From assembly GCA_000934665.2 (NCBI GenBank), contig KZ538364.1, positions 59,539 through 79,538 on the forward strand: a stretch of DNA of 20,000 nucleotides, read 5' to 3'. This document shows positions 3,311 through 19,782 of this stretch, in pieces; the stretch's first letter is position 1; every line of letters begins with the position of its first letter. The stretch is from Catajapyx aquilonaris (Eukaryota). The notes beneath the pieces are model-generated. The model saw only the letters and a program-made list of their open reading frames with translations, was not told where the DNA came from and did not search any database. Made by a program: the position numbers and the translations under genes.

Positions 3311-3311
3311 A

Positions 3312-3358
<47 letters not shown>

Positions 3359-3360
3359 AT
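3311..3360. repeat. (ATAA)n microsatellite, ~12 units
   Basis: Read directly from the sequence. Confidence 0.97.
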
Positions 3361-3607
3361 GGATCATTCCACGCGAAAATGGACATTGGTGAAAAGCCAT
3401 TTTTTATACTTTTTAAACTCTGATGTCAACCAAAATTTTGGTGTTGCTGTGCAAAGACATCATAGGTTAATTTTAGTCAAAATTTATACTTGGTCGTTGT
3501 GTTCATCTGTGCGTATCCTTCATCTAGGATATGATGCAATGGGGGTGGCCGCGTGTGTCTAAGCTCTAAGGGGTCAACTTCGACTGTTCAAAGCTGATGG
3601 GACTTAC

Positions 3608-3998
3608 CATTGATGATGTTTGAGATGAGTGTGAATGGCAGACAGAGGACGTTGACCAGAAGGTCAGCCAAGGCCAGGTTGACGATGAAGAGGTTGGTGG
3701 CGCTCCTCATCCTGGGGCTCCTGTAGACCACGGCTACCACGAAGCAGTTTCCGACCACCCCGATCAGGAAGACGAACGTGTAGGCGGTCAGGAGCATCAC
3801 GGTCATGTGGAGGTCATATCGCATCAGAGACGGGGTCACGGTCAGGGGGTCGTCGCCTGATGGGAATGACACGCAGCAGTTGTTGAGACGAGGAGGAGGA
3901 AGAGGAGGCCGGATACTCCATGTGTAGTTCATCACGGGCTGGATGATGTCCTCTGGGTCAAGGGTCACCTCACTGACATTGCCATTGCGGACGTCCAT
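3608..3998 (-). CDS. SIFaR: First coding exon of a rhodopsin-class neuropeptide GPCR, SIFamide receptor-like (N-terminus, TM1, TM2)
   Basis: The translation contains N-glycosylation sequons (NVS, NYT), TM1 [16 protein letters not shown]1 [12 protein letters not shown] and TM2 [22 protein letters not shown], which from recall closely resemble insect SIFamide/NPFF-type receptors. The acceptor TTTCTCTTTTCCCAG precedes an exon starting at 4023. The phase-1 donor G|GTAAGT follows 3608. It could be a SIFaR paralogue rather than the 1:1 orthologue. Later exons were not found in 1-3607. Confidence 0.85.
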
Positions 3999-4001
3999 TG
4001 C

Positions 4002-8325: not shown

Positions 8326-8774
8326 GGATGGAATATTCGTCCCACTGCTAGTTACTGCTAACTTAGCAGTATCAGAGTTGGCAATAATGGTACTGCTAAA
8401 TTAGCAGTAACTAGCAGTGGGACGAAATTTCCACCCAAGGTTAATATCTCCTTAACTATAGTCAAGCCCTTTTTATACAGATGTGATAACAATGGGTGGA
8501 ATTTTCGTCCCCACTGCTATAGTTACTGCTAATTTAGCAGTACCATTGTCGACACTGATACTGCTAAGTTAGCAGTAACTAGCAGTGGGACGAAATTTCC
8601 ACCCAAGGTTAATATCTCCTTAACTATGGTCAAGCACTTTTTATACAGATGTGAAAACAATGGGTGGAATTTTCGTCCCCACTGCTATATAGTTACTGCT
8701 AACTTAGCAGTACCATTGTCGACACTGATACTGCTACGTTAGCAGTTACTAGCAGTGGGACGAAAATTCCACCC
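8326..8774. mobile_element. Three tandem ~111-bp palindromic MITEs (8326-8436, 8494-8604, 8662-8774) separated by two near-identical 57-bp spacers; period 168 bp
   Basis: Each unit reads GGGTGGAA..TTCGTCCCACTGCTAG..ACTGCTAANTTAGCAGT-loop-ACTGCTAANTTAGCAGT..CTAGCAGTGGGACGAA..TTCCACCC. The 3-bp flanks are AAG/AAG, AAT/AAG and AAT/AAT. G-rich termini with a 3-bp TSD suggest PIF/Harbinger-like (inference). Confidence 0.9.
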
Positions 8775-8820
8775 AATATCGTTAAGGGCAACGAACCAAT
8801 AAAACCTCACGTTGTACACC

Positions 8821-8821
<1 letters not shown>

Positions 8822-8902
<81 letters not shown>
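8822..8902. repeat. (AAT)n microsatellite, ~26-27 units
   Basis: Read directly from the sequence. Confidence 0.97.
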
Positions 8903-11158: not shown

Positions 11159-11889
11159 GAGAGTCCTTTTTTTAGTGCAAAAAAATAGGGTTGAAATTTG
11201 GCAGAGCACGCAAGGATCGAACCTGCTGCACTAAAAATGCGATTGAATTTTCTATGAAGGAGTGGGCGGCAAGAAGATGGTCAGAACTGGGTCAAACTGA
11301 TACACCCCCCCCCCCCCAAAAAAAAAAGTCTTCCCCTCAACAATAGTGTGATCTGGTAACACAGTTTTTTTGAGAGAGGAAAACTTACTAGAATTTTTAT
11401 CCTATCCCGGTTACTTTCCCAGGCTTCCTTTTTTTATTATTATTAATATTTGGGACACCATCCTCATTTGTCTTTGTTGGAAACAAGATCGATGGGGAAG
11501 TTTCGGTCTTTGTGGCTACACGATTACGCTCTAAACAGATTACCAGGTCCGAAGGGGCCTCTTTTTTTTCCAGCATCCCTTGCATTCTATTTTATTATTT
11601 TTTATCGTCCCCCCCCCCCTTCCATTTTTTCATACTGGGGGAGTTGGCTTAGGGAATTCATATTTGGGGGAGACACGAGGGTTTATTCGATTGCTGCAAA
11701 CACAGGAACCATATTTCATCGGCGACCCCAAAAAAGCCGTCCCGAAAAATGTCCTCCCACGCAAGGTTGTGTGTGTGTATTATTTCCAAGCTTGAAATAT
11801 GGCGGGATGAAAAGTTGCAAGATGATCAAATTAATTATTCTAATTGCATTTGAGTGTCTCTCAAGGTTGGAAAGGCCTCTCCCAGAGAG

Positions 11890-14321
11890 ATGCTGGGTGT
11901 TGTGGTACTGTTGGGTTTGTTATTGAGGTTTGTGCTGTGCGATGATGCTTGTCTGGACTTGTGTCAGGTGTCAGGGATGCTGATGGACCAGACTGCGGTT
12001 TTGGATCGTTGTGGGGTCAAAGTGCAAGAACTAGAGGCGACTCTGAGGCGGATGCAAATTCGGTTGGATTCTATGGATCATGCTGGTAAGACTAACCTCG
12101 AAAATATTCGACATTGTCATTTGGCTGGATAAACACAGTGTTTGTAATTATAGCTAATTATTATTCGCAGTTTGGGACATTTCTGATGACAATTTGAGAT
12201 GGAAGGACTGCAACAATGGTATTTGCAAATGTGTAGGAGGCTCGTTCAGCGTGTGGTGTGACAACCTGAACTTAGATTCAGCACAACTCCGGAAGATGAC
12301 AATGCCTTACGACGTTCAGTATCTGTGAGTATTGTTATACAGTTAATTCAAATAGCATTGTAAACTATATGTTTAATTTCCGCAGTGATATGAGCTTTAA
12401 TGGTATGACCGCAATTAACAAGGTAGCATTCAAGAATTTGAAGAAATTGTTGACTTTGTGAGTATCCGCTACATCTCCAGATTTGAATGCAGATTGTAAT
12501 TAATACCTCTTACAGAAATATGCGGTACAACAAGCTGCGATACCTTCCTGAAGAACTGTTTTCAGATTTAGACATGCTCTATTCACTGTAAGCTATTTTG
12601 CCTTTCTGTCACTAGTTTCTGTCAACAATGCGTGCCGCACATTTCAGACAACTTGCAGAAAACGACCTGGAGTTTATAGGCAACAATCTGCTAAGTAGTT
12701 TGAAATCCCTGAAAAGACTGTAAGTTTGTGTGTTTGACAAAGTTTTGAAGCCTCAATAATTCCCACAGTTATCCTTAACAGGGACTTGTCAAGAAACAAG
12801 CTGGAAAAGTTGCCTGGAGAATCGTTTCGATCCCTGGCACAACTTACGTATCTGGAATTGTCTGTGAACAAATTGGCGGATTTGGATGCCAATATTTTTG
12901 CAAACATGGAGCGATTGGAGGAGCTTCACTTGCAACAAAACTCATTGACATCTCTTGCCGACGACATGTTTCTGAGTCAAAAAACAATGACCCTTTTGGA
13001 TTTGAGCAGCAACAGTTTGAAGGACTCGCTGACACCTGACACTTTCAACGGTCTGGAGTCTCTGGAGAGGCTGTACCTGGAGCGAAATTACATCACACAT
13101 CTTGCTGACAATGTATTTAGCAATTTGCACAAACTCCGGATACTGAAGTTGAACCACAATATGCTCAAACAGGTTAGGCAGCATAATTTGCATCTCTATA
13201 TACAAAGCAGAAGGTTTGTTGGTATGTAGGCTATATGTCACGGCTACCTAACCCACTCTGACTACTATAGGACGTAACAGTTCTGAATAATGCTGCTTAA
13301 AACAGCTTTAGTGCCGAATTTTTTACAATTAAAACTGACATCAATTTTTATGTAGGCTGCTGGACATTGCAGGTTGGAAAGCACACTTTTGCAACCCTGG
13401 CCAATCTGGAGTCACTGGAACTGGGACACAATTTCCTGGAAGCGATCGAAACTGGATCCTTCTCCAGTTTGGAATCGCTCGAAGACCTGTCTCTGGTCAA
13501 CAACAATTTGGACACACTGGGTCCGGAAGCTTTTCAGGGATTGAACGCATTGAAAAGTCTGGATCTAGGCAAGAACATGCTGCAAAGTCTGAATTCAAGC
13601 AGTTTTACAGGACTCGCCCAGCTGGAAAATCTGCAAGTGTTTTAAACTGCTAAATTATTATTGAGCCAAGTATATGTAGTGTTCATATAATTATTGGATA
13701 AGTGACATTGTTTTTACCGCAGCAACACTGAAACACAGGTTTGCCCTAAACTGTCATGACGGCCCTTAACAAATTGGCAAATCAGGAGAGTGTGATTCGA
13801 GTATACTTTTTCTCATTGGGTAGTCTTTGCAGTATTGAATTCCAATAATGACGGCCTCTCATTTTTTTATTCTGTGCAATTGAGTCAACATATACACTTG
13901 CTGGTGTCATGACTTCTCACATGGCAGTGCACCACACCACCTGCATGTTTGGTACATAATTAATAAGGGCACATGTGATAATTAGAGTTTCACCTCGTTA
14001 CAGAAACCTGGTTGAAAACATGTTAACCGGAATACCCGAGGGCACCTTCGACGACCTGAAGTCATTGCAATCAGTCATGTTACGTCATAACCCATGGAAT
14101 TGTGAATGCCATGATATCAAATATCTGACACGGTAAAGCCGCCTGATTATTATATGAATGGAAAATGACGTCAACACACATTGTTTATTGATGGCTTTGT
14201 TTTTTATTCCCATAGCTGGATTCAGGACGGAAATGGCCAGGTGTTTTGCTCCACTCCGGATGACCTCACGGGTCAAAAAGTTGAGGACATTGCACAAATT
14301 TGCGGTCACTCTTTGGCTTGA
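11890..14321 (+). CDS. Secreted leucine-rich-repeat protein, ~483 aa, 9 exons (signal peptide, coiled coil, LRRNT, ~13 LRRs, LRRCT; no transmembrane segment)
   Basis: Exons: 11890-12085, 12171-12324, 12386-12457, 12516-12587, 12648-12719, 12782-13172, 13373-13632, 14004-14132, 14216-14321. They sum to 1452 nt with consistent phases and end in TGA. Signal peptide MLGVVVLLGLLLRFVLC; LRRNT CNNGICKC..VWC; three 72-nt single-LRR exons; 24-aa LxLxxNxL repeats; LRRCT NPWNCEC...VFCSTP...C. Intron 7 is GC-AG. Confidence 0.92.
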
Positions 14322-14548: not shown

Positions 14549-14928
14549 AATGATGGTCATATTGATTGAGAGTAATTATTTGAAGCTATTTCGTGGTTTG
14601 AGACGGAAAAAAAGCGCGTTATTTCCTTGTGTTATCGTTATCGTGATGTTTCCAGGGGGGGTATTGGAGATACTGCTGAATGCAACCATTTTCGCCAGGT
14701 GAAACAAGGCCGGGCGAGCAGTCGGGCTATTGACAATAGACACATTTTCAATAGCCATACCAGCAGGTGTTACACCAGTGCATAACACTGGAGTCAGTGA
14801 GATGAGGAATGAAAGGCCGAGTTGGTGATCACCCCCAGTCACGTCAGGCTCGTGTTTAGTGCTGTGACGACGCAGTGGAATTTCATGCATATAGAACAGT
14901 GAACAACATTATTTTTATCTGGTGAAAA

Positions 14929-17900
14929 ATGGTTGGAATTAAGTGTGCGGCTTTCTTCTGGATAGTTGGACTTATGCTGACAGCCTCATACGTCGTGAGC
15001 GGTGAAAATTGTAATTACAAAAATATTTTCACTCAATCATGGCCTGTTATGTATCAGTATACAGTCTTATTGGATTTACGTTTCTTTCCACAGCTTGTAA
15101 AGTAGTGAACGCGGTTAGTAATTATACGATCCGTGGGACTTTACCAACAGTGTACATAAGTGTTGACGATTCCACGCCTACCAAGACGAACCTTGTGACC
15201 TATATTATGAACGATTCTCTCAAAAGTTAGTGGCCTATAATATGCGCAACATAGTTACTTTTTACAGTGAATTTGTCCCTGTTTATGTTCGATGCATTAT
15301 TTACAGGTGTTACCTTCACCACCGACCACCCAGAATTTACAGGTATAGACGTTACTTGGCAAGATACGAATTTTTCGGTTGCCGTCACGGAAAGCCTCTC
15401 CATAGCGAGTGATTACGTACGTAGAATCCATGGTAGAATCAAAAAGGAGCATGGGTTACTTCTTGCCATGAGTTTATTATTACAATCAATTCATCCCAGC
15501 AATTCATGTTGTTGCTAACAGTAAGTTGAGATAACAAGTGGCAGGCATAAAATATGTCGAAAGTACACAACTTACTACTGAAACTATACCATGAGTACTC
15601 AGCATGGCTATACATTGTATTTGATTTAATTCAATTTTTGAATGGTTCGTAATGGTCGCTTCATTTCAGGATGATCTTACAGACCTGATATTCATTTTCA
15701 ACGAATTTTGCGAAGACGACAGTGGAAAACCGCCGGTTAGTATCGCTTCCATTACGTCAACTTCAATTTTTCGATTGTGTCGAAATAGTTTTACATTATA
15801 CACAATCACTAATCCCAGTTACATTCCGCAGGATTCTGCGACGTTACACGTGTATGTGAATGACATAAACAATGAAAACCCTACGTTCCGTAAAGATCAT
15901 TACGAGTTCAAAATTGAGGCTCCTTTGCCTGCAAACGTCCCTATCAATGAGTTCCAACCTCTGCAAGGATACGACATGGATCGGGATCCTCAGAATAACG
16001 TTGTGACAATAGATGACATTTCCGATCCCATAAGTGTTCATTTTGAAGTGACCAACCATGGAGATAAAAACTTCAGTGCAGTCATGATTCCCAAGGAGCT
16101 CATAAAATACGACCCAGACAACCCAGTGATCACTTTCACAGTCACTGCTCGCGTGAGTTGAAAAATAAAACAACTCCAAGTCAACATGTAACTGGTTATT
16201 ATAATAATAAAAATCACTGTTTCAGGATAGCGGAACTCCTCCACTGACTGGAACTACAAATGTTACATTGAAATTGACGCCTTCCTCGCCTCCCATACCA
16301 GTATTTGAAAAAGCCATATACAAAACGTTAATAACAACTAATGCAAGTACCATAATTTCTGATCATTACAAACTTTGCTGGCCACTTTTAATCTGCTGAA
16401 CAAGAAATACTCAATCTTTGTCACGAAACTCAAGACTCGCATGTCATTGCAGTGTCATTAGCTTGCAAAAGTAGTTGGTATGAGCATTTTAAATATATCA
16501 GACACTGACTTGAAATGTGATTGAAAGTGGCAAATTGATTATAATATTATTTATGATGCTTAGAGATTTAACAGGTAATTCATGGTTGATGTTCACAGAC
16601 GGAGGGCTCGAAGTTGGATGTTGAACCGAAAGACTTTTATGCCACTGCTGCAGGTTCTTCGTCACATATGACTTATGAAGTCCTTCCCTGTCCCTTCGAC
16701 GGTATGTATATTTACAACACGTGCTATAGTGAAATTAAAGCGTCTTATCCTGATAAACTATCAGTCAAACTACCAAATATTGAGTATGGAGGATAATTGC
16801 ATTGACGTTAATCTTTCTTCAGTTATCGTGAGTGTATAAAAGCTGAATGAATTGTTTTTATGGAACATTTATTCCGATACTGCAGGGGAAGTGCAAAAGT
16901 TACTGCTATAAATTATAGCCTAATGAAATGGGGGTGTACGTTAATATATTATAATAGTCCGGATGCTTGCAACTCCCTTCATTATTCATTATGGCAATAA
17001 GATCCAGCACCCACATGACCCCTGCGGTAGATGCCGAATACCTTCTGTGAAGGCACATAATAATTTGTCTTTCGTTGCAGAACCTGATTACGCGGAACAT
17101 TTTGGCATAACCAACGGCAAGGATGGAAAGCCCGTACTGACTCTGACGAAACCCTGGAAGATAGCCAAGCTGCCACCATCCCGGTTTTTGATAATGATCA
17201 AAGTACGACAACACACTGGCATTTCCTCTGCAAACAAATGCTGATCTATGTGTGATCTCTTATCTCTCAGGCAACATACGATGGAAATGAGAAGGAGACA
17301 GTGCAAGTGCCACTTCTGGTTTATCCCTACGTGCCTCCAACCACAACCACACCTACCACCACACCTAAACCAACCACCACAAGTAAGCCAACAACTACAG
17401 TCACTCACACCACCACACCACTACCAACTTGTCCAACACCAACTCCTTGCCCTCCTTGCACGACACCCACAACCACAACCAAGTCAACTACTACCACTCC
17501 AACTACCACTCCAACAACTCAACAAACTACTAAGTCTTCTACTACTTCTTCGACAACCCCAGGTACTACAAGTACATCAACCTGCCCCACATGCCCACCT
17601 TGCCCCACTTCTGCCACATCGTGTCCTCCTTGTCCAACCACCCACATTCCAATCACTAAAACGACTGCAACTAAGGCGACTACTACTACTACCACCAAAC
17701 CAGGTACAACCACCCACATTCCAATCACTAAAACGACTGCAACTAAGGCGACTACTACTACTACGACCAAACCAGGTACAACCACTACTTCCTCTCATCA
17801 TACACGAATCACTAGTCCAACTACTTGTCCCACATGTCCACCTTGCCCCTCTTCTTCTACTTCCACTTCTACTCCTTTTTCTACTCCTACTTCTACTTCT

Positions 17901-19323
17901 ACTGCTTCGACTCCAGGCACTAACAAGTCCACAAGTCCAACTAAATCTGGTCCCACCACCACCTCCACTTCAGGCACGCACAGTACATCTCCAACTAGTC
18001 GTAATACTACTTACACTTCCCGTACTTCGCCGTCAGGTAGCACAAGCAGACATACCACCACTCACTCCGGAACATCCTGTCCTCCTTGTCCGACTCCTAC
18101 ACCGTGCCCAACGACTACTACTGCGACTACTAAGGCCAGCACCACTGCTAATCCAGGAACAACCACTGCAGGTATATACGAGACAGTGTTTCTCGTGACC
18201 ACAAAATGTGTATTAATTTTATTGTTCCTTTTTAAATTCATGAAATGTAGTGCCTGATAGAGTCATCTTTGATAAACACGACTACTACGTTGAAACGGCA
18301 ACCAACTGGACCCAAGTAAACCTGCTCACAGTTCATGCCAAGTCCACGTCTGATAAGAATAATGTAATATACAGTCTGGAGTTACCACCTGAATGTGAGT
18401 ATTATTAGTTTAAAAAAAGTAATCAGGAAAAAAACTGCATTTGCATGTATTGGAAGAACATGCTGAGTTCGTACAGTAGTGTGAGCAAAAGGTCGTCGGC
18501 AATTTGTTTGTAATTAATTACCCAAAGGAATTTTAACGAATGCTTTACTATAGCGTAATATTACGGGGCATCGTACAGATTACGGCTCTCCTTTCTTTTG
18601 CAGTGACTAACGCTTTGAATATATCCTCGAATAATGGAACCATTAAGCAAGTGGAGGACATAAATAAGACGGGATTGTACTATTTCGACGTACAAGCTTA
18701 TGATGGGATCGCGACAGACACGGCAACGGTGATTTCTCCAATAGTTCGCTCAAAACATGGTCCAACTCTTGTGTTGTTATTCGTATAGGTTCACATTTAC
18801 GTCAAACCTGCAAGCGACAACGAGAATGTCTTTCTCAGCATGTGGTACAACGTATCAGTTGAGGAAAACACGGAAGGGGAGCTTAATATAAATCTGATCA
18901 TGGGAGATCTTCCGGATATTGACGTGAGGGTAGTGCAAACTATCCCTGGAGGTATGGCACTCACCACCACCATCATTGAACATCCTATAACTTGTGACAG
19001 CTCCACTTTTTTTTTGCACTAATAATTCAGGTCATGAGGATAATTTCACAGTCTTCACTCAAAATCAGACAGTGAGACTGAATCAAGGGCTGGACAGGGA
19101 GTCCACACCTCACCTCTTCTTGAAACTGAGTGTGGCCAAGGAGGATCACTCCTCTGCAGGATTCACCTTCCTCTGCGGAGAAGCCGTGGTCAATCTAACA
19201 GTCACGGACCAGAATGACAATGCGCCCGAATTACTCAACCATACTACAGAATTAATGATGGTGGGCTTTCCGAGAGTCAAACTTCTCCCTGACATTGCAG
19301 TGGACGTCGTTTGGAAATTCACG
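14929..19323 (+). CDS. Divergent cadherin-domain protein with an internal mucin-like region; 5' part only (13 exons, ~890 aa, continues past the window)
   Basis: Exons: 14929-15001 (alternative donor after 15010), 15094-15225, 15307-15416, 15670-15735, 15832-16152, 16226-16342, 16599-16701, 17081-17202, 17271-18171, 18251-18394, 18604-18728, 18789-18951, 19031-19323. They sum to 2670 nt with consistent phases and no stops. Signal peptide MVGIKCAAFFWIVGLMLTASYVVS. Cadherin motifs VNDINNENPTF, YDMD, TVTARDSGTPPL, VQAYDG, LDRE and VTDQNDNAP. Intron 6 is GC-AG. No TM or stop codon within the window. Confidence 0.88.
17635..17785 (+). repeat. 72-bp (24-aa) coding tandem duplication within the mucin exon
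   Basis: THIPITKTTATKATTTTTTKPGTT occurs twice. The DNA copies starting at 17635 and 17707 differ by one synonymous base (ACC/ACG). Confidence 0.95.
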
Positions 19324-19350
19324 GTACAGTATAATATTAATAAGTATAAG

Positions 19351-19353
<3 letters not shown>

Positions 19354-19440
<87 letters not shown>
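19354..19440. repeat. (AAT)29 intronic microsatellite
   Basis: Read directly from the sequence; it begins 30 nt after the donor at 19324. Confidence 0.97.
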
Positions 19441-19692
19441 CTTACACATATAAAAGGGAAAGTTTGTTTGTTTGTCCCATACCGCCCCTTCCCCTCTACC
19501 TCCTCCTCTCCGTCTCCCATTAGTCCCATAGCAACAGGGTTACCATAGAACCGTTTTTCATTGCAACAGCGGTTACCATGGCGACCGTTGTCTATAGCAA
19601 CATGGATTTACCCATAGCAACGGTTACATGGCAACGGGGTTCCGCTCTTCAATTTCCGTGCGAAGAAAGGGTATCCTATCCTGCTACATTAG
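19440..19692 (+). mobile_element. Non-autonomous Helitron-like element embedded in an AAT microsatellite
   Basis: 5' A|TCTTACACATATAAAAGGGAAAGTTTGTTTGTTTGT matches the TC start, TATAAA..GAAAGT and tetranucleotide tract typical of insect Lep1-type Helitrons. The 3' end is a degenerate CCGTGCGAAG..GGG hairpin and TTAG|T. No TIR. It has internal CCATRGCAAC repeats. Confidence 0.7.

Positions 19693-19697: not shown

Positions 19698-19781
<84 letters not shown>
19698..19781. repeat. (AAT)28 microsatellite
   Basis: Read directly from the sequence. Confidence 0.97.

Positions 19782-19782
<1 letters not shown>

Follow-up and report, generated by a model that had tools for sequence, protein, structure and literature searches.

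A mucin-like spacer within a cadherin gene

The window analyzed in our study is a stretch of 20,000 nucleotides (nt) from Catajapyx aquilonaris (assembly GCA_000934665.2, contig KZ538364.1, positions 59,539 to 79,538 of the forward strand), and all coordinates below are counted from its first letter. On its forward (+) strand, sequence comparison identifies a divergent cadherin-superfamily gene with cadherin repeats on both sides of a long Thr/Ser/Pro-rich spacer. The gene was modeled with twelve exons (14929-19323, AG/GT borders, 918 amino acids (aa), free of stops), of which exons 8 to 12 and the donor of exon 7 are supported by RNA. The features of the spacer, where bp stands for base pairs, are the following:

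17331..18170 (+), mucin-like proline/threonine/serine (PTS) spacer, by residue composition and place in the spliced model
17430..17459 (+), Cys cluster 1, CPTPTPCPPC (C-x5-C-x2-C), Cys codons starting at 17430, 17448 and 17457
17583..17636 (+), Cys cluster 2, CPTCPPCP-TSATS-CPPCP, five Cys, codons starting at 17583, 17592, 17601, 17622 and 17631
17826..17849 (+), Cys cluster 3, CPTCPPCP, Cys codons starting at 17826, 17835 and 17844
18078..18110 (+), Cys cluster 4, CPPCPTPTPCP, Cys codons starting at 18078, 18087 and 18105
17635..17785 (+), 72-bp tandem repeat of 2.1 copies with 98% matches (Tandem Repeats Finder), encoding TTHIPITKTTATKATTTTTTKPG twice

The spacer comprises 280 aa (aa 397-676 of the spliced model; T122, P47, S38, C14, K13, A10, G9, H8, I5, R4, N3, V2, Q2, L1, F1, Y1). 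The first-pass annotation had placed here about 280 aa of Thr, Ser and Pro with basic and no acidic residues, and our recount agrees in frame, coordinates and composition: 25 residues are basic and none is Asp or Glu, which account for 46 of 396 aa and 34 of 242 aa in the coding parts of the model on either side. Thr, Ser and Pro together make up 207 of the 280 residues (74%), a mucin-like composition, as had been proposed, and one that suggests O-glycosylation. The Pfam scan of the spacer frame returned no family at E<=0.1. Three open reading frames (ORFs) on the minus strand (17519-17794, 17577-17969 and 17798-18010) were discarded as the Gly/Val-rich complement of a low-complexity frame, the intron ends of the locus reading GT..AG on the + strand.

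All 14 Cys of the spacer fall in the four clusters and none is scattered, and the codon positions bear out every one of these assignments, which the annotation had also made. The successive Cys gaps, taken cluster by cluster, are 6,3 / 3,3,7,3 / 3,3 / 3,6, so that the whole pattern is near-palindromic, with 42, 65 and 78 residues lying between the clusters (1-2, 2-3 and 3-4, respectively). Among their motifs, CPPC occurs five times, CPTC twice and CPPCP four times, and His residues lie within 12 residues of clusters 2, 3 and 4. The seven C-x2-C pairs were reached by none of 20000 residue shuffles, and the nine Cys-Cys gaps of up to 6 residues by 12 of 20000; the clustering is thus far beyond chance. 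The first and last clusters, previously called rough mirror images, match exactly, the 10-mer of cluster 1 being the reverse of the first 10 residues of cluster 4. It is important to note that this order is not significant when taken alone, since two three-Cys clusters with gaps of 3 and 6 must be either the same or mirrored, that is, about 1 in 2.

At the nucleotide level, cluster 3 differs from the first 24 nt of cluster 2 at two positions, both synonymous (TGC/TGT), and the first 15 nt of cluster 4 differ from the CPPCP of cluster 2 at one, also synonymous. All three differences between related copies of the clusters are therefore synonymous, while the neighboring residues differ. The 72-bp duplication, which includes no Cys cluster, is to judge by its sequence a young one, and the Thr-rich parts appear to be in flux. 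Tandem Repeats Finder detected this one unit (x2.1) together with short periodicities of 6-30 bp, and no long array in the spacer. Three known kinds of Cys-rich element were considered and set aside, namely a CysD-type fold, a minicollagen-type Cys-rich domain and a metallothionein-like unit, as they do not fit short C-P motifs and none was matched in Pfam.

Exon structure and transcript evidence

The exons of the gene were examined by comparing the window, over 14900-19330, with the contigs of two sequencing runs: X1, a DNA run, and X5, a small run of another study whose kind is not recorded. Besides X5, the run search listed four runs of one sample from which the DNA may come, and no run entered as RNA for this stretch. 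The remaining features of the model are listed below:

14929-15001, 15094-15225, 15268-15416, 15670-16152, 16226-16346 and 16654-16701 (+), upstream exons predicted from AG/GT borders, prediction being the sole basis except for exon 4
15670..16152 (+), exon 4 (161 aa), which spans some 1.5 cadherin repeats and has VNDINNENP as its linker, supported by homology matches, no RNA cover
17081..17202 (+), exon 7, which contributes to the cadherin repeat finishing in exon 8; donor joined to 17271 in X5, acceptor predicted
17271..18171 (+), exon 8, 901 nt, phase 0 start and one extra base at the end; AG at 17269-70, GT at 18172-73; X5 joints 17202 to 17271 and 18171 to 18251
18251..18394 (+), exon 9, start of the next cadherin repeat (VPDRVIFDKHDYYVETATN...); X5 joints 18171 to 18251 and 18394 to 18604; cadherin cover by phmmer resumes at about aa 681
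18604..18728 (+), exon 10, cadherin repeat; X5 joint at 18604, and a loose end at 18730 whose continuation matches the letters from 18791 on
18789..18951 (+), exon 11, cadherin repeat; X5 joint 18951 to 19031
19031..19323 (+), exon 12, cadherin repeat with the canonical DQNDNAP linker; phmmer against PDB and an X5 contig

Exon 8 lies in a 333-codon open frame (17256-18257, +). Its first 20 codons (ATYDGNEKETVQVPLLVYPY) encode the final strand of a cadherin repeat, and the 280-aa spacer follows. The X5 contigs skip 17203-17270, 18172-18250, 18395-18603 and 18952-19030, with GT..AG ends at all four, whereas the contigs of the DNA run X1 are colinear with the window across all of these skips. As the X5 contigs omit the introns flanking exon 8 at GT..AG ends, this exon belongs to spliced transcripts and is joined on both sides; its absence from the mRNA, which would have spoken against the annotation, is therefore not what we observe. 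Exon 8 is covered by three X5 pieces (17271-17664, 17663-17736 and 17735-18169) with no differing letter, and these break inside it only at the 72-bp repeat, where the X1 contigs break as well. Its length of 901 nt is not a multiple of 3, so that skipping it would shift the frame. The donor-like sequence CCAG/GTAC recurs within the exon at 17566, 17704 and 17776 (+), two of the copies lying within the 72-bp repeat; the X5 contigs read through all three, and so no internal splicing is seen in this run. At the other end of the model, an X5 contig of 1399 nt extends past 19324 into letters reading (A)VDLDEGENG, which indicates that the gene goes on beyond the window.

Cadherin repeats on both sides of the spacer

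The annotation had taken the host for a cadherin, and repeats matched on both sides of the spacer uphold this assignment. Upstream, exon 4 found 92 proteins at E<=1e-3 and seven at E<=1e-10 in a representative library of 1.84 billion sequences, with a best value of 1.7e-18; the 92 proteins have 2-13 matched stretches each at 26-39% identity, the closest being about a third identical, and the five that were checked against Pfam are all Cadherin (3e-33 to 4e-265). In PDB, the same exon matched CELSR1 at 2.1e-7. Downstream, a phmmer search of PDB with exon 12 returned 73 sequences at E<=1, led by Cadherin-1 at 8.9e-8 and followed by CELSR1, protocadherins, cadherin-23 and protocadherin-15. When the spliced model was compared with the 92 proteins by local phmmer, cadherin cover extended over aa ~140-340 and ~680-900 and dropped to 5-6 rows across aa 361-660. 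The best Pfam Cadherin (PF00028) score in the window was 18.0 bits against a gathering threshold of 28.8 (E 0.0038, 18991-19548), in a scan of single frames that each hold part of a repeat; the other frames gave no Cadherin match.

Calcium-binding linker motifs were recognized as DQNDNAP at aa 880, as the variant VNDINNENP in exon 4 and as DLDEGENG in the transcript beyond 19324, and the linker position occupied by the spacer has none. The repeat before the spacer ends in ...LLVYPY and the one after it begins with VPDRVIFDK..., and the spacer thus takes the position of a single linker between repeats; about three cadherin repeats precede it and at least two to three follow. Since further repeats follow it, the spacer is internal and not a membrane-proximal stalk. 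The term stalk used in the annotation does not hold as far as the window extends, given that two more repeats and the DLDEGENG-type exon come after the spacer. A Met followed by a hydrophobic stretch at 14929 looks by eye like a signal peptide, and the spacer, lying between cadherin repeats and after this signal-like start, would by context be extracellular.

Around this putative first exon, run X1 has, in addition to a contig identical to the window, a second one that covers 14911-15068 with 11 differing letters and 3 gaps and diverges fully beyond, and a third that departs from the window at 15122. These additional contigs (14911-15122) indicate that the sample contains another allele or else a paralog of the region.

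Search for relatives with the same feature

Proteins that might carry a comparable spacer were searched for. A word-indexed protein search with exon 4 at longer lengths gave no match, nor did one with the mucin exon at near lengths (8000 candidates scored) or one with its residues 95-150 at longer lengths (E<=10, 346 candidates), and a protein atlas search gave no usable match. Among the 92 related cadherins, CxxCxxC occurs in one, and a 60-residue window with at least 60% Thr, Ser and Pro also occurs in one, near its C-terminal end. In metagenome contigs, one of 105 stretches with the pattern passed tblastn (39 residues, 44%); it was rejected as spurious, lying on a bacterial-looking contig opposite a 334-aa ORF. 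The open-access library that was searched yielded no cadherin with such a spacer and no native cadherin CPPC motif, the latter as judged from the entries listed.

A degenerate DNA pattern for CPTCPPCP found 23 viral and at least 114 prokaryote stretches, with no Thr-rich mucin or cadherin context among the 138 matches listed, and most of these matches look like off-frame chance in GC-rich DNA. Two prokaryote loci (L132 and L103) and a viral one (L010) have tandem CPxCPx arrays in frame that are neither Thr-rich nor linked to a cadherin: L132 strings together CPTCPT units, with 29 Cys in an open stretch of 162 aa, and L010 reads CPECPKCPDCPKC...CPTCPPCP.

Other features of the window

Upstream of the cadherin exons lies a separate-looking leucine-rich repeat (LRR) gene (11854-14321, +), which has a Met and hydrophobic start in 11854-12132, LRR_8 matches in 12738-13229 (3.4e-43) and 13301-13645 (1.3e-23) and, read by eye, an LRRCT-like NPWNCEC...C end in 13960-14321. 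We considered whether its exons form part of the cadherin gene, which the LRRCT-like end followed by a new Met and hydrophobic start at 14929 makes unlikely without disproving it. On the minus strand, 3588-4001 resembles the opening coding exon of a rhodopsin-family G protein-coupled receptor with a long extracellular N-terminal part (7tm_1, E 1.7e-12, profile positions 1-49).

Repeats in the window include a 168-bp unit present 2.7 times at 8329-8776 (91% matches), whose consensus has an internal inverted repeat and which may be a small foldback element or one resembling a miniature inverted-repeat transposable element (MITE). There are also long pure microsatellites, namely (TAA)27 at 8822-8902, (ATA)37 at 19331-19440, (AAT)28 at 19698-19782 and (ATAA)12.5 at 3311-3360, two of which border the cadherin exons of the window at their 3' end. 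Rfam gave no match in the window.

Comparison with known systems

The combination of a cadherin with a mucin-like domain is known; the protein described here, which is expressed, is unusual in its hinge-like Cys clusters and in the internal position of the domain. The relevant section of PMC8691648 describes CDHR5 (mu-protocadherin, a mucin-like protocadherin) as having four repeats, then a mucin-like domain and then the membrane, with some isoforms lacking the mucin-like domain. Both proteins have a cadherin-superfamily ectodomain composed of extracellular cadherin (EC) repeats and a mucin-like domain, but that of CDHR5 follows the last repeat at the membrane, whereas the spacer described here stands between repeats and cannot be skipped in frame. 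Being internal, unskippable in frame and endowed with Cys clusters, it does not represent a CDHR5-type architecture.

With respect to the Cys clusters, the annotation had pointed to CPPC as the motif of the immunoglobulin G1 (IgG1) hinge that pairs chain to chain, and the part of PMC7734232 devoted to this hinge agrees, in that the CPPC motifs of the two heavy chains are bonded covalently to each other. In the same account, the disulfide-locked CPPC of a linker derived from this hinge was modeled as too rigid for O-glycosylation, and the SPPS form was glycosylated. The IgG1 hinge has one CPPC in 15 residues and is given there as not O-glycosylated, whereas the spacer has five CPPC in a mucin-like stretch. 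The best analogue of the Cys nodes would instead be the hinge of human IgG3, ELKTPLGDTTHTCPRCP(EPKSCDTPPPCPRCP)3, for which the hinge portion of PMC8371214 gives 11 interchain bridges (Cys 228, 231, 237, 243, 246, 252, 258, 261, 267, 273 and 276). The Cys of these bridges are 3 or 6 residues apart, and the hinge is given as elongated and partly O-glycosylated. This hinge and the spacer are both Pro/Thr-rich and share the C-x2-C and C-x5-C spacings, cluster 1 being C-x5-C-x2-C. They differ in that the hinge has 62-70 residues, includes acidic residues and lies between dimerizing immunoglobulin domains, while the spacer has 280 aa, no acidic residue and cadherin repeats on its flanks. Pfam found no immunoglobulin family in any frame scanned. 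Flanked as it is by cadherin repeats, the spacer is no immunoglobulin hinge by descent; to judge from the sequences, the resemblance would be at most convergent, a short motif shared without sequence homology. By analogy, the spacer may nevertheless work like such a hinge.

Two further systems deserve comparison. In gel-forming mucins, the PTS domains are broken up by CysD domains, each a fold of about 100 residues. These mucins resemble the spacer in their long Thr/Ser/Pro stretches interrupted by Cys elements, but the elements of the spacer are Cys-Pro motifs of 8-18 residues with no Pfam match. LYVE-1, according to the portion of PMC5122770 on its dimerization, forms a functionally essential covalent dimer through a single Cys in an O-glycosylated stalk. 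In this protein, as would be the case in ours, an adhesion or binding domain is carried on an extended O-glycosylated segment through whose Cys two copies are covalently joined, with the difference that LYVE-1 has one Cys near the membrane and a Link module as its head, while our segment has its 14 Cys grouped in four clusters and interrupts an array of cadherin repeats.

A disulfide-linked tether as the favored explanation

The explanation that we favor, tentatively and at somewhat less than even probability, is that the spacer is an O-glycosylated, extended tether whose bare disulfide nodes join cadherin chains in cis, as a parallel ladder of like with like. The analogies with the IgG3 hinge and LYVE-1, together with CPPC nodes that would be bare, are the grounds on which this form of pairing is rated most likely. 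According to this proposal, the Thr/Ser/Pro segments of 42-78 residues would be densely O-glycosylated and extended, and the spacer would act as a long, flexible tether that keeps the N-terminal repeats tens of nanometers away, an extended mucin-like chain measuring roughly 0.15-0.25 nm per residue. The four Cys-Pro clusters would remain unglycosylated and serve as nodes at which interchain disulfide ladders lock two or a few chains side by side and in register. The cadherin would then form a covalent dimer in cis, its heads remaining paired as the spacer flexes. The annotation had likewise proposed that the clusters may staple two or more cadherin chains into a covalent stalk, one that would resist proteases. 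The odd number of Cys in each cluster (3, 5, 3 and 3) would be easier to reconcile with like-with-like pairing across two chains than with pairing inside a cluster. A two-copy complex prediction of the exon product scored 0.00 with an uncertain fold, which is evidence neither way.

Several observations weigh against this explanation. First, no orthologue was found in the protein libraries or metagenome contigs searched, and there is accordingly no evidence on conservation of the clusters. The CP[PT]CP pattern that the annotation had suggested looking for in cadherins was sought in its wider form CPxCP, which none of the 92 related cadherins contains; the feature is therefore no trait of the nearest detectable cadherins. 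Second, the three synonymous differences between cluster copies are a very small sample. Third, the X5 cover of the gene is absent upstream of 17163, so that exons 1-7 have no RNA cover except for the donor of exon 7. Fourth, the internal duplication at 98% identity implies that the spacer evolves fast, like neutral low-complexity sequence. Finally, the hinge disulfides of IgG owe their formation to folded domains that already keep the chains together, and we know of no dimerizing domain for the spacer-bearing cadherin.

Alternative explanations

The alternative that survives best, which we consider possible but unlikely, is that the spacer is a lineage-specific, fast-evolving low-complexity insertion, with a role as a glycosylated spacer or none at all, whose clusters were spread by local duplication, form whatever disulfides chance allows nearby and have no defined oligomeric role. 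The 72-bp unit duplicated inside the spacer speaks for such an insertion, as do the pairs 2a/3 and 2b/4, which resemble old DNA copies of each other; likewise, no relative with such a region appears among the 92 cadherins, and the homology searches with the mucin exon itself came back blank. The Cys codons, on the other hand, lie more than one step from the codons for Thr (ACN) and Pro (CCN), the 14 Cys are all confined to C-P-rich clusters, the copies of the motif differ only synonymously while their flanks have diverged, and the exon is in frame and expressed. The absence of seven CxxC pairs from all 20000 shuffles, together with the purely synonymous differences between copies, argues that the Cys clusters are no by-product of low complexity. 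Should they turn out to lack conservation, or fail to link chains, the region would represent one more lineage-specific mucin-like insertion.

A second alternative, improbable in our estimation, retains the disulfides but makes the pairing antiparallel, cluster 1 with its mirror cluster 4 and cluster 2 with cluster 3, either as a stapled hairpin within one chain or as a head-to-tail dimer of two. The exact reversal between clusters 1 and 4 and the near-palindromic gap pattern are in its favor, since opposite reading directions would bring the Cys into exact register, and LYVE-1 soluble dimers were modeled as antiparallel about the stalk disulfide in the corresponding part of PMC5122770. Against these points stand the even chance of obtaining the mirror order, the unequal segments to be paired (42 aa from cluster 1 to cluster 2, as against 78 aa from cluster 3 to cluster 4), the two Cys of cluster 2 that would have no partner in cluster 3 and, in a hairpin, the steric crowding that two bottle-brush segments would probably suffer. 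The bolder form of the idea, that the mirror order is a code for antiparallel disulfide ladders and hence a new covalent module of a cadherin ectodomain, as hairpin or head-to-tail dimer, seems if anything slightly less probable again. If it were true, the geometry of adhesion would be set by disulfides of the mucin segment and not by calcium-rigidified linkers, and in the hairpin form the N-terminal repeats would be folded back along the C-terminal ones.

It is also conceivable, at a still lower probability, that the clusters are points of disulfide attachment to other secreted Cys-rich proteins or to an apical matrix, the other use that had been suggested for them. By analogy, exposed Cys-Pro clusters on an extended, basic and glycosylated spacer would be accessible to such partners; no partner is known, however, the window offers no pointer to one, and the upstream LRR gene is merely a neighbor. 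Least probable of all is a role of the CxxC clusters, with the His close to them, in metal binding or as redox-active dithiols in place of structural disulfides. The seven CxxC pairs might suggest it, as might the His that lie no more than 12 residues from three of the clusters, but the region is extracellular by context, where Cys is normally oxidized, and no fold or metal-binding family was matched in Pfam.

Implications for cadherin architecture

Cadherin ectodomains are usually viewed as calcium-stiffened rods. CDHR5, the well-known cadherin that bears a mucin domain, has it at the membrane end, and a repeat array interrupted by a glycosylated tether would differ from it. If the covalent pairing of the favored explanation is true, the Catajapyx aquilonaris protein would be a long-reach, covalently paired adhesion or barrier molecule, and its spacer would stand as a clean example from nature of an antibody-type hinge that evolved convergently beyond the immune system.

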